Virus record (IMG/VR): IMGVR_UViG_3300015607_000776
Length of the DNA: 20,000 bases
Origin: an uncultured virus (IMG/VR IMGVR_UViG_3300015607_000776)
Taxonomy: Duplodnaviria > Heunggongvirae > Uroviricota > Caudoviricetes
Reading direction: 5' to 3' (one strand)
Both the position numbers and the translations under genes were made by a program. The notes under the pieces were generated by a model. That model saw only the letters and a list, made by a program, of their open reading frames with translations, ran no database searches and was not told the origin of the DNA. Below, in pieces: positions 1 to 18,666 of this stretch. Positions within the stretch are counted from its first letter, which is position 1. Every line of letters starts with the position of its first letter.

Positions 1-39
1 GAATTCATCATATGACAATTTTTGTGTTTTAACGATCAT
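1..39 (-). CDS. 5' fragment of a gene running off the window (MIVKTQKLSYDEF...)
   Basis: ATG at 39-37 overlaps the TGA of the macrodomain gene (ATGA coupling), and the frame is open to the window edge. Too short to assign. Confidence 0.5.
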   Translation of the reverse strand, partial: MIVKTQKLSYDEF

Positions 40-515
40 AGTTCATAGACCTTTATATTGACGTTGGATGCTGTACCAAATGAATATTTTGAGGTACCCA
101 GGAAGTTTTGTTTGATTATTGATTCGATAATCTCCCAGTTACCTCCACCGAGACCGGCACCTATTCTAGGGATTGCAATTTCCATTATGTCGTTTACTTC
201 ACAATAGAGCGCAATATCCTCAAAACATTCATCAATGGCATCATAACTAACATATCGCCTACCATCTTTTCCAAAGTTTAATTGAGTGATGGCATTGGCA
301 ATAACTGTTCCATCATCCTGTTCGGAGAAATTAACCGAACCAAGGAGACTTTCTTCAGGCATTTCACGACACATTTCAACATAATCTTCATATGCCTTTG
401 GATACTTCTCCTTGATCTGTTTTGCAAGACCACTGCCCATAACACCTTGTGCATTGCATCCATGGACAATAAGTTTACAACCCGATTTTAGAATATCACC
501 TTTAATATACTGCAT
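36..515 (-). CDS. Macrodomain (Appr-1''-p processing / ADP-ribosylhydrolase-like) protein, T4 Tk.4/Poa1/DarG-class
   Basis: N-terminal IKGDIL, IVHGCNAQGVMGSGLAKQIK and IAIPRIGAGLGGGNW motifs, typical of ALC1/TARG1/DarG-like macrodomains. Confidence 0.92.
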   Translation of the reverse strand: MQYIKGDILKSGCKLIVHGCNAQGVMGSGLAKQIKEKYPKAYEDYVEMCREMPEESLLGSVNFSEQDDGTVIANAITQLNFGKDGRRYVSYDAIDECFEDIALYCEVNDIMEIAIPRIGAGLGGGNWEIIESIIKQNFLGTSKYSFGTASNVNIKVYEL

Positions 516-1071
516 ATTGCCTCTTGTTCAAATACATTTCAAAATAATGGTCTTGTTCACGTTTGATTTCTTCTGGTGTTACACCCGCGATTGTTACTTG
601 AGAAATTAGATCATCACGGACCTGCATGATTGCTTCACCCAGCCAGTTAGTCCCTTTCCATTTTGATTCATCCAAAATGTCGGGATCATTTTCATGTAGA
701 CCAATACCCCATACAGTATCTTCTGGACTAGCTTCGACAATCTTTAGTTTCTTTGTTCCCAAAAGGAAATTGAATAACTCTTTATGTTGACTAAACTTTG
801 CCCAGTTTGCACGATAAACAACTAAACGAGCAACTTTTTCCCATTCTACTTGATCAAACCCCTTGACCTTACGACCCCAGGCCTTTTGTTCGCGAGGATT
901 ACTGATCTTCAGAATTGCATCCAATGCATCTTGGTCATTGAATAATCTTGCCTTCTCTGCCATCATATATTGCTCATTGCAATTGTATGTATGACCATCA
1001 ATTTTAATAGGTGCCTTATACCACTGGGAACATTCACCACCCCAAAAGAAATAATATTTTCCACTAATCAT
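502..1071 (-). CDS. NADAR (YbiA-like) family N-glycosidase / ADP-ribosylhydrolase
   Basis: FFWGG..SQWY, EQYMMAEKARLF, KAWGRKVKGFD, KFSQH, VEASPEDTVWGIG and GTNWLGEAIMQVR motifs. Confidence 0.95.
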   Translation of the reverse strand: MISGKYYFFWGGECSQWYKAPIKIDGHTYNCNEQYMMAEKARLFNDQDALDAILKISNPREQKAWGRKVKGFDQVEWEKVARLVVYRANWAKFSQHKELFNFLLGTKKLKIVEASPEDTVWGIGLHENDPDILDESKWKGTNWLGEAIMQVRDDLISQVTIAGVTPEEIKREQDHYFEMYLNKRQYAVY

Positions 1072-2105
1072 TAGATACCTACCATGTGTTCCACTATATT
1101 AAAATGATCCTCAAACATCTTGTTTCTGGATTGTGCAAATTTACTGAAAGGTACCCAGAATGCCTTAGCAGCGTCATCACTTCCCTTGATCTTTGGAAGA
1201 CCAGATTCAGTGTCAGTTAATTTAAAATGATATGCCTGGGAGATTGTTCTACCTCTTGCGCTTCTGTGAGGATCGTCATAGGTATGCACATCTGCGATTG
1301 AACCAACCAATACTGGTTTAGGAACCTTCAGTTTAGTTTCCTCATATAGTTCACGAATGACTGCTGCCTGCAATGTTTCATCTTGGCCAACGAAACCACC
1401 AGGCAATGCCCAAAGACCTTTACCAGGCAATGCACCACGTTCTACCAGTAGAATATGTCCTGCCTGAGTAACAACAGCGTCAACTGTCATAAACGTAGGA
1501 GGATAAGGTGCACGATTCCAGGATGCCTTATAGATTTCCAGGTGTTCCTTTTCATTGAAAATCTGATTCCAAATGTCACGAGAGAAACCTAGAACAGTCT
1601 CAAAGTGATCTTTGTCAACGAATTCCTTGTCGTCATACTCAGACCAATTGGTAGAGAACAATTCATTCCTGATGGTTGTTGCATCAATGGGATGCTTGAT
1701 ATCCACATTGATCAAATCCCACTGAGGAAACTTTCTTAGATAGTAAGATGAATGATCCTTGTCATATCCAATAATGCAGATGTTAGTTGGACCAGGTCTG
1801 AATTTACTGAAAACGATTGTATTTACCGATGCCTGAATGGAAGCAATCCAACGTTCATCATTATATGTATGATCAACCTGAGGTGCAAAGTGAATATTTG
1901 GACCATCCAAACCAGTTGATTTGATGATTTCCATTCTTTCTGCGGTTGTGAAAGGATTACGAGTATCGCGAGGGCGATCATGTGATCCAATGACAAAGAT
2001 TATATTTTCGGAGATTTTTAACGCTTCTTCTGCGATGTGATAATGCCCAATATGGAAGGGCTGGAAGCGGCCGATGATTACGGCATAATCGTAAGGTTTT
2101 TTCAT
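1071..2105 (-). CDS. nadM: Bifunctional NMN adenylyltransferase / ADP-ribose pyrophosphatase (NadM-Nudix, NatV-like)
   Basis: N-terminal IGRFQPFHIGH nucleotidyltransferase motif, RNPFT..ER and KDHSSYYL..FPQW. C-terminal Nudix box ALPGGFVGQDETLQAAVIRELYEET, plus GSDDA and FEDH. Confidence 0.95.
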   Translation of the reverse strand: MKKPYDYAVIIGRFQPFHIGHYHIAEEALKISENIIFVIGSHDRPRDTRNPFTTAERMEIIKSTGLDGPNIHFAPQVDHTYNDERWIASIQASVNTIVFSKFRPGPTNICIIGYDKDHSSYYLRKFPQWDLINVDIKHPIDATTIRNELFSTNWSEYDDKEFVDKDHFETVLGFSRDIWNQIFNEKEHLEIYKASWNRAPYPPTFMTVDAVVTQAGHILLVERGALPGKGLWALPGGFVGQDETLQAAVIRELYEETKLKVPKPVLVGSIADVHTYDDPHRSARGRTISQAYHFKLTDTESGLPKIKGSDDAAKAFWVPFSKFAQSRNKMFEDHFNIVEHMVGI

Positions 2106-2106
2106 G

Positions 2107-2152
2107 TGCTAAAACTCCTTTAGCAAAAGTAGGAAAGGATCTATTCCTTCCC
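2107..2152 (-). promoter_or_regulatory. Structured 5' leader of nadM-Nudix: two hairpins, with the SD sequestered
   Basis: The minus strand reads GGGAAGGA-ATAGA-TCCTTTCC (8 bp stem with one G-U, 2132-2152), then TGCTAAAG-GAG-TTTTAGCA (8 bp stem with one G-U, 2107-2125). The second hairpin contains the SD AAAGGAG and ends 1 nt before the ATG. Confidence 0.65.
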
Positions 2153-2162
2153 ATTGTCTAGT

Positions 2163-2191
2163 AGTATATAGTATTTTTTACTTCAAGTCAA
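2163..2191 (-). promoter_or_regulatory. sigma70-type (early) promoter for the nadM-NADAR-macro operon
   Basis: TTGACT (2191-2186), 17 nt spacer, TATACT (2168-2163), located about 55 nt upstream of the nadM start. Confidence 0.75.
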
Positions 2192-2572
2192 GCTATTTGT
2201 TGCTTTATCTTTACTTATTTTATTCACGACGTACTTGAATTCTTCATCAGATAAACCATATATATACTTGATTCTACTTAGAAATTCTAGTAATAGTTCT
2301 TTGGAATCATAGATTTCGGGGTCAAAACCTGCTTCTTCTAAACCATAGCATGAGCAATGACTTCCTAATAGGTAGTAATATTTTCCCTGGTCTCGCCATA
2401 TAACAACCGCGGATCCTTCATAACCATCTATGTCATATTTTGCAATATAGACTTTTTCGGGTTTGGGATGGTTTTTTAACTCAGACTTTGATCTAACATC
2501 ATCATATGTCGAACCAGTGAATTGGTTAACAACATCTTTCCAACTGTCAAAATTACCTAAATACGTTTTCAT
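2183..2572 (-). CDS. Hypothetical phage protein with a GSHCSCYG motif
   Basis: ORF 2183..2599. Start revised to ATG 2572 (MKTYLGN), preceded by AGGA SD and just after the upstream stop. Confidence 0.75.
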   Translation of the reverse strand: MKTYLGNFDSWKDVVNQFTGSTYDDVRSKSELKNHPKPEKVYIAKYDIDGYEGSAVVIWRDQGKYYYLLGSHCSCYGLEEAGFDPEIYDSKELLLEFLSRIKYIYGLSDEEFKYVVNKISKDKATNSLT

Positions 2573-2582
2573 AGTTTTATTC

Positions 2583-3092
2583 CTACATAGTTTTCTCAAG
2601 ACTATCGTATAGTTTTAACAGTTCTTGAGCATGATTTACTTCTTCAATTGCAAGTTTTACTGCTTCATCCAGTGTTTTCACTTGAGGAATTCCATACTTA
2701 GCACAGACAATATCGATATTTCCTTTTCTCCAGAACCCCTCTGGGCAGACAACCACTGAATCTGTAAAACTTCCTGTTGCCAATCCAAACTCAAACATTG
2801 TTACAGGACTCTTGGTTCCAGGAAGGAAATTGAAGATGCGAAACTGTGCCATTTCCAATCCCAATAGTTCCCACTCAACCTGCTCACGGAATTGTTTATT
2901 GTTGATAGATTGGACCCAAGAATCATCCCAATCTAGTCTGCGAGGATCGAGAACATCCAAACCAGCATCATTCAATTGGTGTGCTGCTGTAATCTGCCAA
3001 TGCTCTGCTTCACCCATTTCAATGGAACCTGCAAGAAATACTGCTTTGTTCCAATCACATCCCATAATTGGAGCTGGTGCACGAAAAATCAT
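2583..3092 (-). CDS. Nucleoside 2-deoxyribosyltransferase-like protein (Nuc_deoxyri_tr2-type)
   Basis: VFLAGSIEMG..WQ, VLDPRRLDWD, QVEWEL, PGTKSPVTMFEFGL and VCPEGFWRKGNIDIVC motifs. Confidence 0.85.
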   Translation of the reverse strand: MIFRAPAPIMGCDWNKAVFLAGSIEMGEAEHWQITAAHQLNDAGLDVLDPRRLDWDDSWVQSINNKQFREQVEWELLGLEMAQFRIFNFLPGTKSPVTMFEFGLATGSFTDSVVVCPEGFWRKGNIDIVCAKYGIPQVKTLDEAVKLAIEEVNHAQELLKLYDSLEKTM

Positions 3093-3430
3093 TATATAGT
3101 CTCCTTAAGTTTTCTAGTCTCTGTTTCACACATTTTAATGAAGATTGAAATATCGGTTGTCCTCTTTTTCTCTTCCAGAGGTTTGAATCTCTCATATCTA
3201 TAACCATAAGCATTTACCGTATCAGGATTTTTTGCCATTCTATCAATTTCTCTCACATCAACTATAATGTAATTAAATATAGGATGAGGATAGATTTTAT
3301 CTATCGTATAGATTTCACCCTTTGTCAATCCATCTAAGCTTCCAATATAAGTATATCCAGGAAGGTTATATCTTGATACATCATCATTAATGCATACAAC
3401 TTTCTGACCAACATAAAAATTGCATTCCAT
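3092..3430 (-). CDS. Hypothetical protein (FYVGQKVVCIND N-terminus, possibly a small beta-barrel)
   Basis: ORF 3092..3526. Start revised to ATG 3430 with AGGAAG SD; TAATG overlap with the downstream gene. Confidence 0.7.
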   Translation of the reverse strand: MECNFYVGQKVVCINDDVSRYNLPGYTYIGSLDGLTKGEIYTIDKIYPHPIFNYIIVDVREIDRMAKNPDTVNAYGYRYERFKPLEEKKRTTDISIFIKMCETETRKLKETI

Positions 3431-3431
3431 A

Positions 3432-3557
3432 TCACTTCTTCCTACTAAAAAATATCTCTTTCTCTCTTGCGTGGACAATAAGGCCTCTTTCTTGGAGACA
3501 TTGTATAAACTGTGCCCATTGGGCATCTGTATTAAGCGCTGTTGGTATTGGTGTCAT
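3432..3557 (-). CDS. Small hypothetical protein, 41 aa (MTPIPTALNTDAQWAQFIQCLQERGLIVHAREKEIFFSRKK), not in the ORF track
   Basis: Manual translation. ATGA overlap with the nuclease stop, GGAG upstream, and the stop lies 1 nt before the next ATG. Confidence 0.55.
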   Translation of the reverse strand: MTPIPTALNTDAQWAQFIQCLQERGLIVHAREKEIFFSRKK

Positions 3558-3997
3558 TTCCAAAATCTCCATGCCCATCCACACCAATTAAACTTCTTAC
3601 CTTTACCATAGTAAGGTTTTGCATATCCGTTCTTGATCAATTCTTTACTGAGTGGTTTCCCATCGATAATAACATCACCAAGAATTCTACCACCGTACTT
3701 GTCCCAACTCTTAACTAGTATTTGGACCTTCTTTGCATGGGAGATTTCCTGAGTAGTGAATAACTTTGCTCTCAATGAGAGACTTTCTTCCAAATGACAT
3801 TTTGCTCGTGGTCCTTTTTCGGGAGTATCCACACCTAGGATTCTGACGCTGAGAACAGGTTTCAATGGTTGAGGTAGAAAGTCAACTAAGACTTCTACTG
3901 TGTCACCATCGATTACTCTTTTGACTGGCCAGTCATATGGATTACCATATGCTGGTGTAGTGATAGATAATATCAGTGCAAAAATAGTTGCTCTCAT
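3554..3997 (-). CDS. Thermonuclease (SNase-like) with signal peptide
   Basis: VKRVIDGDTV, VRILGVDTPE, DKYGGRILGDV and LIKNGYAKPY motifs. Start revised to ATG 3997, giving a Sec-type leader MRATIFALILSITTPAYG. Confidence 0.92.
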   Translation of the reverse strand: MRATIFALILSITTPAYGNPYDWPVKRVIDGDTVEVLVDFLPQPLKPVLSVRILGVDTPEKGPRAKCHLEESLSLRAKLFTTQEISHAKKVQILVKSWDKYGGRILGDVIIDGKPLSKELIKNGYAKPYYGKGKKFNWCGWAWRFWK

Positions 3998-4005
3998 TCT
4001 TTCCC

Positions 4006-4656
4006 CTATGAAATGCTGGGACACACTAACATTATATTCAATGCATCCTTGAGTCCTTGATATGTGGTTGTGTCAACGAATACCCCACCAGTTTCGTCTG
4101 CAATGCATGAAGCATTTTTCAATTCATCAAAACCACCTTCCAACCCAATAACGTGGATTGTCAGATCGGAAGACTTAGCCTTTAGGTCCTTTGCTGTCTT
4201 GCATGTATCTCTTCCACAAGTATCATCACCATCAGTGAGCACAACAATTGTTGCTTTCTTATGCTCATAGTCTAATGCTTCTGCTGCCTTTTCAAGGGCA
4301 GTTGATAGTGGTGTTCCACCATCAGTCTTGATATTATCGATCACCGAAAGAATAGATTTCGATGCATTTAGTTGAACAGGAACGACCATATCAACATTTG
4401 AACATTGTTCTTTTCTTCCTGGACCTAAAGTAAGTAGTCCCAATCTTCGGTGTTGTGAAGAAATTGGGACTACTTCATGTGCTGCTAGTCTTGCTGCTTC
4501 GATCTTTGAATTGCCACCCTTGAACAATTGAGACATTGATCCAGATGCATCCATTACGATCATTGCATCATTTGTGCAAGTATCTTGCGGTTGGAGGGCA
4601 ATTGCACTGTGATTCGCAAGCAGAATTGCCACAACATATACTAGGAAATTTCGCAT
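4006..4656 (-). CDS. Exported von Willebrand factor A (vWA) domain protein
   Basis: MIDAS DASGSM, GGTPL, VVLTDGDDTCG and IHVIG motifs. N-terminal signal peptide (MRNFLVYVVAILLANHSAIA) and six Cys. Confidence 0.9.
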   Translation of the reverse strand: MRNFLVYVVAILLANHSAIALQPQDTCTNDAMIVMDASGSMSQLFKGGNSKIEAARLAAHEVVPISSQHRRLGLLTLGPGRKEQCSNVDMVVPVQLNASKSILSVIDNIKTDGGTPLSTALEKAAEALDYEHKKATIVVLTDGDDTCGRDTCKTAKDLKAKSSDLTIHVIGLEGGFDELKNASCIADETGGVFVDTTTYQGLKDALNIMLVCPSIS

Positions 4657-5603: not shown

Positions 5604-5641
5604 GATAATGTCTTCCTATTGTATGATTTCCTAATTTTAGT

Positions 5642-5669
5642 ATTATATCACATCTGGAACGAAAGTCAA
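5642..5669 (-). promoter_or_regulatory. sigma70-type (early) promoter with extended -10
   Basis: TTGACT (5669-5664), 16 nt spacer, TATAAT (5647-5642) preceded by TGn. Lies in the 5604-5677 intergenic gap. Confidence 0.7.
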
Positions 5670-5677
5670 GTAGGAAT

Positions 5678-6405: not shown

Positions 6406-7776
6406 TCACACCTTTAATGCTTTAAATTTGTTCACCTGTGGACTTTGACTAGATGATTTGGAAGCTCCTGAATGAACCACATTTTTCTGTGCGGTTTGTA
6501 ACAAGTCAAAGAGTTTCATCTTGGTCTTATCAACACCGACAACACCTCTGGGAACTCTGTTCATATCATCATATCTATTTTTTAACTGCTTAATCATAAT
6601 TTGGTTCATCTGCTTCATCTGTTCACTGACAATTAGAACCAACAATAAGTCACATGTCGCTGGCAAACCAAATGATTCTGCCACGTCTGTCATATCTGGA
6701 TCGGAACTTGAATAACCTGTTCTGGTCAACTGTGTTGCTGACCAGATGGGAATTCCAAACTCCTGCGCAAGACCTCTGACTTCTTCCGCAATAGACTTGA
6801 CATAGGTATATGTGTCATTTGCTGAGGATGCCTTAATTCTGGATGATGCACAAATGTTCAAATAGTCAATGAGGATAACATCTGGAACAAAGTCTTTCTT
6901 CAATGACAATTCATTCAACAATGCCTTGAAATGAAGTACCGAGGCGGACGTTGAAGGATATTCCTTGATGATCAACTTGCCGTTTGTTTTCTGCTTTAAC
7001 TTTGATACCTTGTCATCATACAATGCCTTTGGTAAAACCATAAGGTCATCAAATGAGATATTCAGAAGGTTTGCGTCAATTCTCTTTGCAATTTCTTCCT
7101 CTGACATTTCCAATGAAATATACAGGACATTCTTACCCTGATTTAGGTATGCGGATGCAAAGTGGCAAAGAAACAAAGACTTACCAGAATGAACACCACC
7201 CATGATAATGTTGAGTGTCTTATTTGGAATACCACCTTTGGTGATATTGTTCAGAAACTCAAGATCGAAAGGAAGTTTCTCTTCCACTCTATGGTAGTAA
7301 TCAAATCGCGAATCTGACTGCTCCAGATAATCGTGTCCAACATTAGGATCAAATGAGACTGACAATGCATCCGAAAGAAGACCAGGGATCGCACCCTTGG
7401 TCAACTTACTTTTGTTGTTTAGAATTTCGATTGAATTCATAATCGCATTATAGATTGCCTTCTCTTGACAGAATTCCTCTGTCGATTTGGTCAACCAATC
7501 AATATGATTCTTGTCAGTGTTTGCCTTAATGTTCTCAAGTGTCTTGATTGCATTGTCTAGGGTATCCTGGTACAATCCAGGTTTCTTACCCAATTCGACT
7601 GAGATTTCATCAACACTTGGTGAAACATTATATGCTGTTATGAATTTCTGGACAACATCAAAGAGAACCTTATCTGAGTCATTTTGGAAGTATTCTTCTT
7701 TTAGGAATGGCAGGACCTTTCTTGTATAGTTTTCATTTCCCAATAACGACTTAATGATAATGTGTTCAATCTGCAC
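6406..7776 (-). CDS. 41: Replicative DNA helicase (T4 gp41-like, DnaB/SF4)
   Basis: Walker A GGVHSGKS, YISLEMSEE, Walker B IDYLNI, SATQLTR, ESFGLPATCD and KQLKNRY motifs. Follows uvsX as in T4-like phages. Confidence 0.95.
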   Translation of the reverse strand: MQIEHIIIKSLLGNENYTRKVLPFLKEEYFQNDSDKVLFDVVQKFITAYNVSPSVDEISVELGKKPGLYQDTLDNAIKTLENIKANTDKNHIDWLTKSTEEFCQEKAIYNAIMNSIEILNNKSKLTKGAIPGLLSDALSVSFDPNVGHDYLEQSDSRFDYYHRVEEKLPFDLEFLNNITKGGIPNKTLNIIMGGVHSGKSLFLCHFASAYLNQGKNVLYISLEMSEEEIAKRIDANLLNISFDDLMVLPKALYDDKVSKLKQKTNGKLIIKEYPSTSASVLHFKALLNELSLKKDFVPDVILIDYLNICASSRIKASSANDTYTYVKSIAEEVRGLAQEFGIPIWSATQLTRTGYSSSDPDMTDVAESFGLPATCDLLLVLIVSEQMKQMNQIMIKQLKNRYDDMNRVPRGVVGVDKTKMKLFDLLQTAQKNVVHSGASKSSSQSPQVNKFKALKV

Positions 7777-14051: not shown

Positions 14052-14079
14052 GATGTATTCCTTTTGTAATTGTGAGTAT

Positions 14080-14108
14080 ATTATAAACTAGTTTGTGTCA
14101 AATGTCAA
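14080..14108 (-). promoter_or_regulatory. Perfect-consensus sigma70 promoter upstream of the polymerase block
   Basis: TTGACA (14108-14103), 17 nt spacer, TATAAT (14085-14080). Confidence 0.85.
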
Positions 14109-14917
14109 TCGGGATCGTACATGGTTGTAGGTAGATATTTTCCTGCAGGATTGTTTCCTTCATCCATATCTATCACCTTATAGACCTTTACGTCGGGATT
14201 ACTGCATACCCATTGTTCATCCCTAAATCTATCAGATGCACCTTTCAACCAAATATTGGAAGTCTTTTCCTTCAGAGCATACCACCAATCTTTGGTAGCA
14301 GGATTGGGAAGTGTTTTGATATATGAAGATTTTGCCCACCAAAAATTTCCACTGAAATGTGGTGATGGTGAACTAAAGAAATTCACACCAGCAACATCGT
14401 TATCATCTAATGCATCAACGCATGACCTCCATCTTTTGATCACACCCCAATTCAAAAACTGACGCCAGTAATAGTAATTCTTGAACGATTGTGCAAGGAT
14501 ACAATTCTTGCTCATTAGTCTCATGCAAGAGGTGATTCCTTTTGTATGAATATACATGACATAGAATTCTTCCTCTGCGTTTTGACAGTCCTCATATATC
14601 CTTCTGAAGGTATAGTTTTCAGTGATTGTATGTGGACTCTCAAGGTTTTCCATCATCGCAATATCATTTGCCCAGGGGTTCTTGACAAAATGAATATCAA
14701 AATTAACACCCTTGTCAGCTGCCATTTCAGTGGAACACAGTGATTCCAATTCTCTGATACGTTCATCATCCTGAGTGATTGCAACAATCTTAATCATATC
14801 CAACTCACTCAAGAGTCCGGAATCTTCCATTGCCTTCATCTGTTCAAGGAATATATTAGTCCATGTACTTGGTTCATCGGTCAGGTACATGTGGTAATAT
14901 AGGATTTTCTTAATCAT
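14105..14917 (-). CDS. Putative glycosyltransferase-like protein
   Basis: TENYT, YIHTKG, YYWRQFL and HFSGNFWWAKSSYI.TLP pattern, as seen in viral GT-like proteins. Sits in a sugar-gene context. Confidence 0.55.
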   Translation of the reverse strand: MIKKILYYHMYLTDEPSTWTNIFLEQMKAMEDSGLLSELDMIKIVAITQDDERIRELESLCSTEMAADKGVNFDIHFVKNPWANDIAMMENLESPHTITENYTFRRIYEDCQNAEEEFYVMYIHTKGITSCMRLMSKNCILAQSFKNYYYWRQFLNWGVIKRWRSCVDALDDNDVAGVNFFSSPSPHFSGNFWWAKSSYIKTLPNPATKDWWYALKEKTSNIWLKGASDRFRDEQWVCSNPDVKVYKVIDMDEGNNPAGKYLPTTMYDPD

Positions 14918-16208
14918 TGTCTATCCTAAAACTTTCAACCTTTGGGAAATATCTGACAAAAACATCATTTGGATTGTCTCTGATAGATTTGATCTTCGAT
15001 ACGATTTCATCAAAGAAATTCCAAGCAAGAGGAATGAATACAATTGAGTCCTCTGTTGTCTTTAGAAAATCAGAATTGATAATCGGAAGCTTTGAACCAG
15101 GAGCAAACTTACCTTGCTTCAATGGGTTATCATCAACAATGCAACTCATGTATTTACCAATATCAGTGTAATTAATTAGTGTCATGCCCTTTGCTGCGGC
15201 ACCATAACCAACTACCATCTTACCAACATCACTTCTCCAATATTGAGTAATTTCATCAGTCAGTTTTTGAGGCAATGCTTCACACTTCTTTTTGTATTCA
15301 TAGTAAGTCTTTGGACTATAGAGTCCTACTGCCTTTTCCATCGCAATCAGATTTTCGATTCTGTATTTTGTTGAGGTCACAGGTGGGGTTTGACCAATAA
15401 CAAAAATGTAACTAGTTCCGTGCAAAGGAGTTTTGATAACATCAATCAGTTCCATCCCTGCTCTTTTGCACAGCTCTTGCATCGAGTTAATATTGTAGAA
15501 TGAAATGTGCTCATGGTAAATTGTATCAAACTCACCATTCAAAATCATATTTGCCTGTGAAGTTTGGATGAATAACAAACCATCAGCTGCCATCATATTT
15601 TTTACATTGTTTAAAAATGTAAATGGGTCTGGATTATGAGCAAACACATTTTGTGCTACTACAATATCTGGTTTGTTATAGCCAAATTCAATGTCATCGT
15701 ACATCCATTCGACAAATTCATTATCAAAAAATCCACAATACAAAATGTGTTGATCCGACTTTTTTCTAGCACTCTTTATAATATTTTCAGCAGGATCAAC
15801 ACCAATTGTCACAAATTTTCCGTTTAATTTATTGAATTGGTCTAATTGTGAACCATCATTGCAACCAATCTCTACAATTACCTTTGGTGTTCTGTCATTA
15901 AGTGACTTATAATATTCGTCAGCAAATTTAGAAAACCACTCGAAGTATTCCATCATAGTCTTTGAAGTACCACTTACATATGGGTAATCTTTATACAGAA
16001 TTTCAGGATTGACAATATGCGTCAACTGGACATGGTAACAATCCAAGCAACGATTAATTGCAAGGGGAAATTGTTCCTGTACCTGAATTGCAGTTTTCTT
16101 AAGTGAATTTGCTGGTGGTTGCTTTCCTAGGTCTAGTAGTGGAGTCAAACAATTCCCACCACATGCCAAACACGTCTTTAATTCTTCTACTGGTCCATTC
16201 TCAAACAT
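14910..16208 (-). CDS. NDP-hexose 3-C-methyltransferase-like (Zn-binding N-terminus, SAM domain, C-terminal domain)
   Basis: CLACGG...CLDCYHVQL, YPYVSG, EIGCNDG, NVFAH, FDTIYHEH, GYGAAAKG, DDNPLKQG and LAWNF motifs. Start revised to ATG 16208; 16217 is an alternative. Confidence 0.9.
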   Translation of the reverse strand: MFENGPVEELKTCLACGGNCLTPLLDLGKQPPANSLKKTAIQVQEQFPLAINRCLDCYHVQLTHIVNPEILYKDYPYVSGTSKTMMEYFEWFSKFADEYYKSLNDRTPKVIVEIGCNDGSQLDQFNKLNGKFVTIGVDPAENIIKSARKKSDQHILYCGFFDNEFVEWMYDDIEFGYNKPDIVVAQNVFAHNPDPFTFLNNVKNMMAADGLLFIQTSQANMILNGEFDTIYHEHISFYNINSMQELCKRAGMELIDVIKTPLHGTSYIFVIGQTPPVTSTKYRIENLIAMEKAVGLYSPKTYYEYKKKCEALPQKLTDEITQYWRSDVGKMVVGYGAAAKGMTLINYTDIGKYMSCIVDDNPLKQGKFAPGSKLPIINSDFLKTTEDSIVFIPLAWNFFDEIVSKIKSIRDNPNDVFVRYFPKVESFRIDND

Positions 16209-16464
16209 CGTTTTCATCTTCCAATTGCTCATCAGTTTTCTCAAACCACAAATCTTTAACTTCATATCCTTGTGGCCACAATGCATCTAGGTGGTCATCA
16301 CGCCATCCTAGTGTCAGTTCGCAATCATAATGCTTAATCAACCACTTGCTTATTTGTCTATTATAATCTCCCAAATAAGCGGCGGTGCATTTTGGATTAT
16401 TTACCATTACTCGGCAAACTTCCATGCATTTTTTACATTCTGCAAAATACCAGGTCTTTGCCAT
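16201..16464 (-). CDS. Hypothetical protein with CxxC and further Cys/His (possible metal binding)
   Basis: 87 aa ORF starting immediately after the methyltransferase stop; ECKKC and HYDC. Confidence 0.7.
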   Translation of the reverse strand: MAKTWYFAECKKCMEVCRVMVNNPKCTAAYLGDYNRQISKWLIKHYDCELTLGWRDDHLDALWPQGYEVKDLWFEKTDEQLEDENDV

Positions 16465-17133
16465 TTATTTCCCTTTGGGTGTCACTCGCTTCATTTCCGT
16501 TTTTCCAAACTTTTCAAACACGACTATACTATCATAAAAATGGACAGAAGTCAAGTCTTTCCCAATTTTCTTCCTTTGTTCCAAGTCTGCATTCATTTCT
16601 TCCCACCAACTGGAATGGATAACATCAATGTAGGACTTTGCATAGGAAATAAACGACCCTTTTACATTCAATCCACCACCATTGTATTGCATGTAGGAAG
16701 TATGGCAATCTTCACAGATATAGACTCCATTTAAACATAGTTTTGGGAAAATCTTCTCAAAGGTCAGAATTTGTTGATCCATGAAATGACCACCATCATC
16801 AATGAAAATGTCAATTTGAGGGTGCTCTTGAAGGAATTTATCCCAAAATTCAGGATCACTTTGATCACCAATCACAACCTTGATATTTGGGTTATCATAT
16901 TGTAATTTTGCACATTCAGGATCAACGTCAATACCAATAACTTTATGACGTGGACCTAAAAATTTACCCCACATTTCCAATGATCCACCTTGCTGAACAC
17001 CGACCTCAACTAATGTTAGAGGTATGGGCATTAGTTCAGTCCATGACAAATGTATTTCATAGACATTGAAATAAGGCAACCACTTATCAGATGGGTGATC
17101 TAGGTTTTCAAAAAGATTCTGTAGTCTACTCAT
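16465..17133 (-). CDS. Class I SAM-dependent methyltransferase, sugar O-methyltransferase-like (MycE/TylE-type motifs)
   Basis: SDKW..YF..YE, EVGVQQGGSLEMW, GIDVDP, GDQSD, IFIDDGGH and GVYICED motifs. Confidence 0.88.
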   Translation of the reverse strand: MSRLQNLFENLDHPSDKWLPYFNVYEIHLSWTELMPIPLTLVEVGVQQGGSLEMWGKFLGPRHKVIGIDVDPECAKLQYDNPNIKVVIGDQSDPEFWDKFLQEHPQIDIFIDDGGHFMDQQILTFEKIFPKLCLNGVYICEDCHTSYMQYNGGGLNVKGSFISYAKSYIDVIHSSWWEEMNADLEQRKKIGKDLTSVHFYDSIVVFEKFGKTEMKRVTPKGK

Positions 17134-17528
17134 TTCAATTTCTTTCTTTTTGGTTTTTTGTCCAAATCAATAACGTAAGCATTAATTTTCTTTTTACCTA
17201 TAATTCGATTTATCAGAACCCTATGATGACCGTCCATAAGAAGATTCTTGCCCTTATGTCGAATAACCTGTACCGGTTCTGTATCATCTATCTTCCAAAG
17301 CATTGCCTGAGGAGAATAAAATGTACCTCGATGTGTTTTGACCAGACTATCAATATCAACCTGAGTAATCTTAGAAGAAAGAAACTTGTCGATTAGTCTT
17401 CCCTTGGTTTTCTTCATTGCTGCATCATAAGCAGCATCTCCTAAAGAAGGATCGGACTCCTTGAATTTTCTTTCTTCATCTATATAGGTCTGAAGAATAC
17501 GCTTAAATGCTTTCTTGTAACTACTCAT
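17130..17528 (-). CDS. ParB/sulfiredoxin-like domain protein
   Basis: PVQV....LLMDGHHRV...G..KINAYV motif; very basic termini. Confidence 0.7.
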   Translation of the reverse strand: MSSYKKAFKRILQTYIDEERKFKESDPSLGDAAYDAAMKKTKGRLIDKFLSSKITQVDIDSLVKTHRGTFYSPQAMLWKIDDTEPVQVIRHKGKNLLMDGHHRVLINRIIGKKKINAYVIDLDKKPKRKKLK

Positions 17529-17629
17529 TTTTCAAGTTCTTCCAACCTTTTAGCAATTACCCATAATGCACCTGTGGTAAATACATTACAAACAACCATT
17601 AATAGTAAAAAAATCTCAGCATAATTCAT
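17525..17629 (-). CDS. Small single-pass membrane protein, 34 aa (MNYAEIFLLLMVVCNVFTTGALWVIAKRLEELEK), not in the ORF track
   Basis: Manual translation. ATGA overlaps at both ends; a hydrophobic core followed by a charged tail. Confidence 0.65.
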   Translation of the reverse strand: MNYAEIFLLLMVVCNVFTTGALWVIAKRLEELEK

Positions 17630-18666
17630 ATTTCAATCCATTCTTTGTTTGCAAGTGACCATTCAGTCACTTCACTGATTCTTTCCTGAAGACTAAACCT
17701 TGGTTCCCAACCCAGACTTTTCATATACCCACCATCAAGTGCATACCTCAAATCATGACCAGGTCTGGATGAATGGAAGTCAACCATTTCACAGATAGGT
17801 GTTCTACCTTGTGCATTTGCGATCATCTTTACCAATTCAAGGTTATTGATTTCTTCCTTACCAACAATATTGAACTTGGGGCATTTTGCACCACCCCAAT
17901 CTGGTGTGTAAATTGTTTTCAAGTTTTCAGGTGATAGAGTTAATATAAACAGAATTGCATCTGCCACATCCTTTGCATGTATATAGAATCTTGACCCAGG
18001 GATTGTACGTGTTGAATCACTATGGATGAAAATCTTTTCTGAGTCTCTAATCTTCCTAATACACAATGGAATGAACTTCTCTGGGTGTTGACGTTCACCA
18101 AAGACATTCATGCAATGAGTAATGAAGATTGGAAGTTTATAGGTATTTTCATAGGCAACACAGAATTCCTCACCTGCTGCTTTGGAAGCAGAATAGGGGT
18201 TGGTTGAGTTATATCTGTCACGTTCCTTGTACGATACACCAGGAGGTGCAATACCAAAGATTTCATCTGTGCTGAAATAGATCATACGTTCAAGGTTCTT
18301 TAAACCTCTTGCAAAATCTAGAACGTTTACTGTTCCCACAGTATTATCCATCACAAATTCCATTGGGTGAGTGATAGACCTATCAACATGACTGGATGCT
18401 GCAAGGTGCAGGATAATATTTGGATCACCAATGAAATTCTTGGTTAGGTCTGATATGGGCGCCTTTAGATCATGCCATACCACCTTAAGTCTTTGTTGTG
18501 TTTCTTTGGGATACTTCTCTAGAACACTGTGTAACCTGTTTAGGTTTCCAGAATAGTCCAACCGATCAAGAGATACAATCTCCCAATCGGTCTTTTCTAG
18601 GAACAAATCAATAATGTGGTGGCCTATAAACCCAGCTCCACCTGTCAGGAGACAACGCTTAACCAT
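17626..18666 (-). CDS. rmlB: dTDP-glucose 4,6-dehydratase (extended SDR)
   Basis: GGAGFIG, LDRLDYSGN, HLAASSHVDRS, STDE, YSASK, QHPEKFIP and RPGHDLRYALD motifs. GGGAG SD. Confidence 0.92.
   Translation of the reverse strand: MVKRCLLTGGAGFIGHHIIDLFLEKTDWEIVSLDRLDYSGNLNRLHSVLEKYPKETQQRLKVVWHDLKAPISDLTKNFIGDPNIILHLAASSHVDRSITHPMEFVMDNTVGTVNVLDFARGLKNLERMIYFSTDEIFGIAPPGVSYKERDRYNSTNPYSASKAAGEEFCVAYENTYKLPIFITHCMNVFGERQHPEKFIPLCIRKIRDSEKIFIHSDSTRTIPGSRFYIHAKDVADAILFILTLSPENLKTIYTPDWGGAKCPKFNIVGKEEINNLELVKMIANAQGRTPICEMVDFHSSRPGHDLRYALDGGYMKSLGWEPRFSLQERISEVTEWSLANKEWIEI

Follow-up and report, generated by a model that had tools for sequence, protein, structure and literature searches.

How do phages that rebuild nicotinamide adenine dinucleotide (NAD+) control the genes with which they do so? 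NAMPT and NMNAT-Nudix make up the phage pathway NARP2, which rebuilds NAD+ after an NAD-depleting defence (bioRxiv 10.1101/2024.02.11.579819; PMC13464706), and no description of the expression control of NARP2 was found in the available text of the literature searched. The question is raised by a 20,000-nucleotide stretch from an uncultured virus of the Caudoviricetes (IMG/VR record IMGVR_UViG_3300015607_000776), the whole of which is called the window, in which a minus-strand nadM-Nudix gene is preceded by a short leader that an initial annotation had proposed to be a cis-regulatory RNA. We favour, with moderate confidence, the reading that a two-hairpin leader of NAD-salvage genes, widespread and uncatalogued, has one of its copies in the 51 nucleotides at 2153-2103 (-) and serves as a translational operator for a trans-acting reader. 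The genes preceded by this element are nadM-Nudix, NAMPT/nadV, pnuC, nadE and a small unassigned open reading frame (ORF), in phages as well as in bacteria.

Two hairpins at the nadM-Nudix start codon

Hairpin 1 (H1; 2132-2152, minus strand) has an 8-bp stem, GGGAAGGA/UCCUUUCC, with one G-U pair; its 5′ arm (2152-2145) and 3′ arm (2139-2132) enclose the pentaloop AUAGA (2144-2140), which is closed by an A-U pair. An unpaired linker of 6 nucleotides without G (UACUUU, 2126-2131, minus strand) leads to hairpin 2 (H2; 2107-2125, minus strand), a 7-bp stem, UGCUAAA/UUUAGCA (arms at 2125-2119 and 2113-2107), with the loop GGAGU (2118-2114), which holds the core of the Shine-Dalgarno (SD) sequence. 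A single nucleotide, C2106, lies between the end of H2 and the AUG of nadM-Nudix (2105-2103), and the H1 and H2 loops are 26 nucleotides apart. RNAfold recovers exactly H1 and H2 from 2162-2095 (-), as both the minimum free energy (MFE) and the centroid structure. The MFE of the leader is -16.3 kcal/mol, compared with -9.63 ± 2.25 kcal/mol for 200 dinucleotide shuffles (z = -2.96), one of which was as good. Both hairpins persist in a 141-nucleotide context, where the overall z is only -1.21, and their stem energies are -10.6 kcal/mol (H1) and -5.1 kcal/mol (H2).

These results agree with the initial annotation in that nearly the whole leader is structured, that H1 carries an AUAGA loop, and that the other two promoter-proximal leaders in the window (5604-5677 and 14052-14104), described as without comparable structure, are indeed poorly structured. 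The second hairpin, claimed to bury the SD beside the AUG, is present next to the start codon, but the burial does not hold: in AAAGGAG only AAA is paired and the GGAG core lies in the H2 loop, in the MFE structure of the window as well as in the family consensus described below.

A covarying family of NAD-gene leaders

A megablast search of window positions 1-4000 against 50,697 phage records gave no match, and only two leader variants of at least 88% identity are present among the sequences reached. In the 88%-identical relative (G001:C128, identical to L004), the H1 stem is kept through a 1-nucleotide deletion, the loop is ACAGA and H2 is identical. Covariation cannot be assessed at such close range, and the comparison was therefore extended to distant homologues. 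Scanning IMG/VR with 17-nucleotide exact words of H1 and H2 returned mostly chance matches; the useful one was the H2 word, which occurs identically before nadM and pnuC of a 251-kb jumbo phage.

Eighty IMG/VR loci with NadM-Nudix homologues (40-52% identity) were gathered and their upstream regions read, giving 59 distinct leaders. Forty of these have the same architecture, with covarying stems, and end at the start codon; the layout is shared by most of the homologue leaders while the stem sequences differ completely. The H1 loop is mostly G-AUAGA-C, with the variants ACAGA, AAAGA, AGAGA and AGUGA. In a blind pattern test, a perfect stem of at least 6 bp around an A-N-D-G-A pentaloop was found in 29 of the 59 distinct leaders. 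In the controls, the pattern turned up once in 236 coding windows, once in 115 windows farther upstream and three times in 1180 shuffles. The spacing from the H1 loop to the H2 loop is 25-30 nucleotides in 31 of 35 copies, H2 ends between -3 and +4 nucleotides from the AUG, and H1 lies 22-31 nucleotides ahead of it. The leader in the window has all the marks of this family, namely an ANAGA-type loop, a GGAGU loop in H2 near the AUG, the 26-nucleotide spacing and an NAD gene downstream.

A MAFFT alignment of whole leaders mis-registers H2 by 1 nucleotide and was therefore used for H1 only. Its 34 distinct rows have 95.8% of the H1 stem cells paired and double changes at each of the 7 pairs; the covariation score of 1.24 compares with 0.23 for shuffles (0 of 500 reach 1.24) and 0.13-0.27 for slid partners. 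Covariance models were built from 7 leaders (R1) and from 42 matches (R2). When 86 phage and bacterial loci were searched, 87 matches passed E < 0.01, 83 of them distinct. Across the 83 distinct copies, 94.6% of cells are paired (49.5% when shuffled, 38-48% with slid partners), the inner helix of H2 is 99.5% paired, and all 14 helix pairs (8 in H1 and 6 in H2) show double changes. By a measure independent of structure, the top 14 column pairs in mutual information are exactly the 14 helix pairs. Within the helices G:U occurs 44 times and A:C 13 times, and the matches always lie on the sense strand of the downstream gene (42/42, 25/25, 35/35 and 87/87; in the set of 87, the single minus-strand match precedes a minus-strand gene). 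Since the stems covary, G:U outnumbers A:C and all matches are on the sense strand, the folded molecule is the mRNA. The upstream regions of NadM-Nudix and NAMPT homologues, when compared as the initial annotation had suggested, share covarying stems, a conserved AUAGA-type loop and an association with NAD salvage; the proposed cis element is conserved, covarying and confined to the sense strand. In the 20-kb window itself, R2 gives one strong match, at 2103-2153 (-) (53.7 bits, E 1.5e-11). The second best (7464-7508 (-), 18.4 bits, E 0.014) is inside the helicase gene and is taken to be a false positive, having neither an AUAGA loop nor a start codon.

The first position of the H1 loop is A in 76 of 77 copies, the second varies (U 48, G 16, A 7, C 6), and the others are A (71/77), G (76/77) and A (77/77). 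The closing pair is G-C in 46, C-G in 20 and A-U in 10 of 76 copies, and loop position 2 correlates with it, which yields the subtypes G-AUAGA-C and C-AGAGA-G. The H2 loop is likewise conserved (G 83/83, then G 82, A 81, G/U 62/17 and U/C 69/11), and the top pairs below it are A-U-rich. The linker is 6-13 nucleotides long and poor in G (A 303, U 216, C 154 and G 20 of 693 letters); neither linker-loop complementarity nor loop-loop covariation was found in the family alignment. The median stability over the 83 copies is -8.9 kcal/mol for H1 and only -3.4 kcal/mol for H2. The element is a conserved covarying structure with a fixed A-N-A-G-A loop in H1, a weak H2 that displays GGAG and abuts the AUG, and a G-poor, length-constrained linker.

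The same 83 copies bear on a further proposal of the initial annotation, that UCCUUU in the 3′ arm of H1 can pair with AAAGGA in a mutually exclusive alternative fold. In such a two-state switch, this anti-SD would compete with H2 for the SD. The complementarity itself is exact in the window, and SD-like and anti-SD-like H1 arms occur in a few relatives (L086, L097, L074 and L098). The alternative duplex, however, is worth -5.8 kcal/mol in the window compared with -15.7 kcal/mol for H1 plus H2; CUCC or UCCU occurs in the H1 3′ arm of 8 of the 83 copies, compared with 6.2 in shuffled arms; and an alternative duplex at -6 kcal/mol or better exists in 4 of these copies, while the alternative is more stable than H1 plus H2 in 1 of 83. 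The complementarity is a coincidence of the window's copy, and the probability that we give to a two-state switch is close to negligible.

The phage carries a second copy of the element before NAMPT, about 190 nucleotides to the left of position 1 of the window (L001:3794-3843, the same as G002:C1:16938-16987; 48.5 bits), which reads CACAACAAG/AUAGA/CUUGUUG ... CGAAAGGAGUUUUCG AUG. It has no obvious promoter and is therefore probably internal to a nadM-NADAR-Macro-NAMPT transcript. In the homologue loci, too, the second and third copies that turned up precede NAMPT/nadV. The loci searched were chosen via NAD genes, and the main control of specificity is the scan of whole records. Five of these (G002-G006, of 26.7, 455, 251, 242 and 195 kb, about 1.17 Mb) gave 11 matches at E ≤ 1; 10 are leaders of nadM, nadV or pnuC (Pfam NMN_transporter), and one, a weak match, is inside a helicase gene. 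The 251-kb phage has pnuC-nadM-nadV, each with its own copy (L160:1501-2172; G004:C1:66648-), and its nadM and pnuC copies carry the exact 17-nucleotide H2 word of the window at only 46% protein identity. In five phage loci (L140, L147, L127, L132 and L141) the element stands not before nadM but before a small ORF directly upstream of it. In L140:227-601 and L147:248-601 this ORF is 117-124 amino acids long and belongs to phrog_33851, of unassigned function, with the motif WxVRGEDxNCDFGGxHYMPELG; the regulon may include it as a further member. The ORF at 2183-2599 of the window is unrelated to this small leader-bearing ORF (E = 12).

Among bacteria, 80 nadM-Nudix loci gave 25 matches, before nadM, nadV and, in an Azospirillum, nadE, and in 33 of 79 nadV loci the element ends at the nadV start. 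Carriers include Budvicia, Pragia, Asticcacaulis, Caulobacter, Halomonas, Microbulbifer and Sulfurovum, and the culturable ones include Budvicia, Pragia, Asticcacaulis, Burkholderia, Luteimonas and Azospirillum. Copies of high G+C content (0.63-0.70) retain the same loops, and nadM-Nudix lies next to nadV in 5 of 5 motif-positive bacterial genomes tested. Over all these searches, the element occurs almost only before NAD genes and only on the sense strand.

Two variations on this arrangement were also observed. Divergent from nadM, and beside it, three of the five motif-positive bacterial genomes have Nudix-like ORFs of 242-285 amino acids (G007:C35:35690-36082, G008:C27:17937-18260 and G010:C19:75137-75583), which are probably NrtR repressors, so that the operons of these three genomes may have two levels of control. 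In L077, L078, L079 and L083, about 40 nucleotides before the nadM ATG, H1 (GGAUAGACC) is kept and an upstream CUCC pairs with the GGAG of the SD, which is truly sequestered there.

Candidate promoters, a possible module boundary and the NAD operon

A candidate sigma70-like promoter (TTGACT at 2191-2186, a 17-nucleotide spacer and TATACT at 2168-2163; 2163-2191, minus strand) was found ahead of the leader by a consensus scan, with 10 of 12 matches. The scan gave 76 sites overall compared with 69.1 expected, and this promoter is therefore a prediction only; judging from its position, transcription would be expected to start at about 2157-2155, 3-5 nucleotides ahead of H1. The intergenic gap between nadM-Nudix and the upstream ORF, the stop of which is at 2183, is 77 nucleotides. 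Contigs from RNA libraries (four runs, window positions 1-4000) cover the leader, mostly in the variant of the 88% relative, and one of them bridges 2053-2921. Such contigs reveal neither starts, ends nor strand and may stem from DNA carry-over, and they are therefore not counted as evidence of a transcription start or of expression.

In the family, 39 of the 83 copies have a promoter-like element ahead of the model start, ending 0-11 nucleotides before it (one -10-like element at 16 nucleotides). Fifteen of these are -10-like, and 24 resemble the T4 late promoter (TATAAATA/CTAAATA), ending 0-7 nucleotides ahead of the model start. Transcripts from the T4-late-like promoters would begin at or just within the 5′ arm of H1.

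A hairpin that follows a few nucleotides after promoter-like elements in 39 of 83 copies is placed like a 5′-terminal protective hairpin. This placement would suit a generic expression cassette without NAD sensing, in which H1 would be a 5′-proximal or intercistronic stabiliser and insulator, H2 a context-independent ribosome-binding-site (RBS) hairpin, and both would move with nadM and nadV. The G-poor A/U/C linker, which resembles translational enhancer or S1-binding leaders, and the break in identity to the 88% relative inside H1, which suggests a module boundary, are also consistent with such a cassette. A stabiliser, however, needs no fixed loop, and yet the stems vary at every position and the loop nucleotides A1, G4 and A5 hardly at all (conserved in 76-77 of 77 copies). 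Furthermore, the element is found before several non-homologous NAD genes (nadM, nadV, pnuC and nadE) and not in one gene lineage, and other leaders of the same genomes are without it. We regard a generic cassette as quite unlikely.

The identity break was located by comparing window 2140-2330 (-) with L003:1200-1560 and L004:1250-1560. Over the upstream gene, the promoter and the H1 5′ arm, the window and its 88% relative are 100% identical, and identity is lower from the H1 loop on; judging by this break, H1 resembles a recombination or module boundary as in PeSLs. A T4-type PeSL, a composite terminator/promoter recombination cassette, would show such a drop at its exchange points (PMC4122927), and either a PeSL or an intrinsic terminator of the upstream gene would agree with a promoter-like site directly before a stem-loop in a T4-like genome and with the terminator scan, which lists H1 followed by UACUUUUGCU. 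PeSLs, however, are repeats, whereas strong copies of this element number one in the 20-kb window and two in the 26.7-kb record, itself part of the phage genome; both are at NAD genes and their stems are unrelated. The same element is also found in bacterial chromosomes. The family linker is 31% U and has no U-tract; as the segment after H1 is A-rich without a U-run across the family, the terminator-like tail in the window is not a conserved feature. We regard a PeSL or terminator as a very improbable explanation.

The window derives from a T4-like phage of wastewater or activated-sludge metagenomes, and its minus strand carries the genes for a family-B DNA polymerase, UvsX/RecA and a DnaB-like helicase. 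nadM-Nudix (1071-2105, minus strand; Pfam CTP_transf_like 1.3e-11, NUDIX 3.4e-20) encodes a bifunctional nicotinamide mononucleotide (NMN) adenylyltransferase/ADP-ribose pyrophosphatase, homologues of which, annotated as NadM/NMNAT-Nudix, were found in 483 phage records. It is followed in the same direction by a NADAR gene (502-1071, minus strand; Pfam NADAR 6.6e-49) and a Macro gene (36-515, minus strand; Pfam Macro 4e-11), and the NAMPT/nadV of the same phage, an ORF with NAMPT_N and NAPRTase, lies about 190 nucleotides past the left edge of the window. NADAR and Macro, enzymes that remove ADP-ribose, sit between nadM-Nudix and NAMPT with all genes in one direction, and the NARP2 pair is therefore extended here by two ADP-ribose-processing genes. 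Farther away, at 14910-18666 (-), genes for a C-methyltransferase, another methyltransferase-like protein and a GDP-mannose 4,6-dehydratase-like protein lie among the replication genes, which suggests that this phage has sugar-nucleotide modification functions.

A proposed translational operator and its known counterparts

In the reading that we favour, the element would work as a translational operator of the NAD-salvage (NARP2) regulon. H2, with the SD in its loop and the AUG at the foot of its helix, would be a marginally stable brake on 30S binding, and initiation would fall whenever H2 is stabilised or its region is occupied. H1 lies about 25 nucleotides ahead of the AUG, where the ribosome footprint ends, and would be the recognition site for the trans-acting reader; it is the likely site because it is stable, its distance is tightly kept, and it holds the only conserved nucleotides that translation leaves unexplained. 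A bound reader would block initiation or lock H2, and enzyme synthesis would then follow NAD status. Because the element is found in many phage hosts and several bacterial phyla, the reader should be either universal, that is a metabolite or core machinery, or encoded beside the element. NadM-Nudix and NAMPT are the only proteins seen with the element throughout, and we favour the idea that one of them moonlights as the repressor. In this phage, the element would set the expression of the NARP2 counter-defence operon, with nadM-Nudix, NADAR and Macro under the first copy and NAMPT under the second.

Several points weigh against this reading. The alignments behind the large counts were fitted to the model structure, which favours pairing; the models were scored on loci of the kind from which they had been built, and their E-values are rough; and the 35 rows used for H1 covariation had been preselected for at least 4 pairs next to the loop. 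Among the 59 distinct phage nadM leaders, 14 are without the full motif. The model NadV/NatV phage, KVP40, is without a match over its 244,834 bp, and no copy precedes nadM in Cronobacter phage S13. In the nadM and nadV leaders of Klebsiella phage K64-1 (L242:2895-2986 and 4047-4126) the two-hairpin layout persists, but the H1 loops are UGAUGUA and GUAGUA, which may represent a subtype with a different reader specificity, and the clade L077-L083 has a CUCC...GGAG hairpin in place of H2. Joint inheritance of gene and leader could also make the association with NAD genes look more specific than it is, and NadM-Nudix and NAMPT are not known to bind RNA.

It is also worth considering whether a metabolite could be the reader. 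The element would then be a riboswitch of a third NAD-related class, in which the hairpins, with or without the G-poor linker, would bind NAD+, NMN, nicotinamide riboside, ADP-ribose or a related metabolite, H2 would be stabilised and translation would be off. The regulon-like spread before nadM, nadV, pnuC and nadE in unrelated lineages needs a ubiquitous reader, for which a metabolite qualifies, and the marginal stability of H2, with the SD beside the AUG, is like that of translational expression platforms. Guanidine-II is a precedent for a riboswitch of two small hairpins with conserved loops. Both validated classes of NAD+ riboswitch control NAD genes in a similar way (PMC6859854; PMC7749635; PMC8632094). 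On the other hand, the conserved unpaired nucleotides are only those of the 5-nucleotide H1 loop and of the SD loop, and the H1 loop covaries with neither the linker nor the other loop. The H1 and H2 loops differ and are not complementary, the tight spacing fits a steric or bridging protein better than loop docking, and the loops of K64-1 are different. Since the element has no internal loops, bulges, junctions or tertiary covariation that could make up a binding pocket, and its spacing is tight, a protein-read operator is somewhat likelier than a riboswitch, which we consider unlikely.

A bolder proposal, which we put forward tentatively, is that the element is the sensor of a new NAD-pool circuit common to bacteria and phages, either as a third minimal class of NAD riboswitch or as an operator read by NadM-Nudix or NAMPT. 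In the enzyme-read version, the A-N-A-G-A loop, rich in adenosine, would occupy the nucleotide pocket of the enzyme, and NAD+, ADP-ribose or ATP would compete with it there. If this were true, phages would switch on the rebuilding of NAD+ by NARP2 exactly when host defence depletes NAD+. Beyond NrtR, NadR and NiaR, the element provides an experimentally accessible point of entry to NAD homeostasis; it is also a candidate new RNA class for Rfam and may explain the timing of phage counter-defence. It is 51 nucleotides in size, and its loop, spacing and stems can be cleanly mutated, so that it is cheap to test.

The leader in the window clearly belongs to a class of NAD-gene leader RNA that is new and unpublished and is of a familiar kind, the structured translational leader. 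This RNA is not described in the available parts of the full-text literature covered (including PMC11109978, PMC8632094, PMC7749635 and PMC2330246). No Rfam 15 family reaches its gathering score in the window. The judgement by eye that the leader does not resemble the NAD+-I or NAD+-II riboswitches is borne out, as both models stay without a match at E ≤ 10 across 1900-2400 and, at E ≤ 1 or 10, in the 22 related loci as well. A likeness to these two classes lies in their being cis leaders of NAD genes, including pnuC, on the sense strand, with the RBS within the structure, so that translational control linked to the NAD pool is expected (PMC7749635; PMC8632094; PMC6859854). The pnuC motif (NAD+-II) is described as a P1-P1a structure with a conserved internal bulge and an RBS pseudoknot, in Streptococcus only (PMC7749635; PMC8632094), and the nadA motif (NAD+-I) occurs upstream of nadA in Acidobacteria. 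In contrast to the pnuC motif, both hairpins are uninterrupted here, and there is no covariation beyond the 14 helix pairs and no pseudoknot signal; the plain two-hairpin element also differs from both classes in its range of hosts and genes.

NrtR controls the same genes (nadV, nadM, pnuC and nadE), through operators that are 21-bp DNA palindromes with conserved arms and the core GT-N7-AC (PMC2330246). An NrtR operator was considered for H1 and ruled out: the window has GG-A-ATAGA-T-CC at those positions, and the arms of the family vary, covary, tolerate G:U and occur on the sense strand only. The covariation of the H1 arms in itself argues that H1 is not such an operator. The likeness to PeSLs is that of a promoter-like site and an intergenic stem-loop in a T4-like phage, with an identity break at the hairpin (PMC2839356; PMC4122927), and PeSLs are described as repeated sequences spread over the hyperplastic regions of T4-type phages (PMC4122927). 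The present element, in contrast, is not multi-copy in the part of the genome covered, is tied to NAD genes, and conserves its loop rather than its sequence across unrelated phages and bacteria.

Like the present element, Guanidine-II (mini-ykkC) consists of two small hairpins in tandem, of which the second is close to the SD; the stems covary and the loops are conserved. Its two loops, identical ACGR tetraloops, dock with one another, and its linker is free to vary in length. The two loops of the present element, by contrast, are different (ANAGA and GGAGU) and do not covary with each other, the spacing is tight, and there is no Rfam match in the window. The CAGAGAG and CAGUGAG variants of H1 presumably resemble the PyrR loop; the Rfam PyrR models have no match at E ≤ 10. 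The IRE_I model has a match (E 1.3) elsewhere, on the opposite strand within nadM and not at the motif. Autogenous operators, such as those of E. coli thrS with ThrRS, T4 gene 43 and gene 32, the RNA-phage coat protein and the B. subtilis PyrR binding loop, are small hairpins with a sequence-specific loop near the SD or AUG and stems free to covary, at which repression works by competition with the 30S subunit. The present element is like them in being a loop-specific hairpin near the SD and AUG with covarying stems, and differs from them in serving several genes of one pathway, in phages as well as in bacteria.

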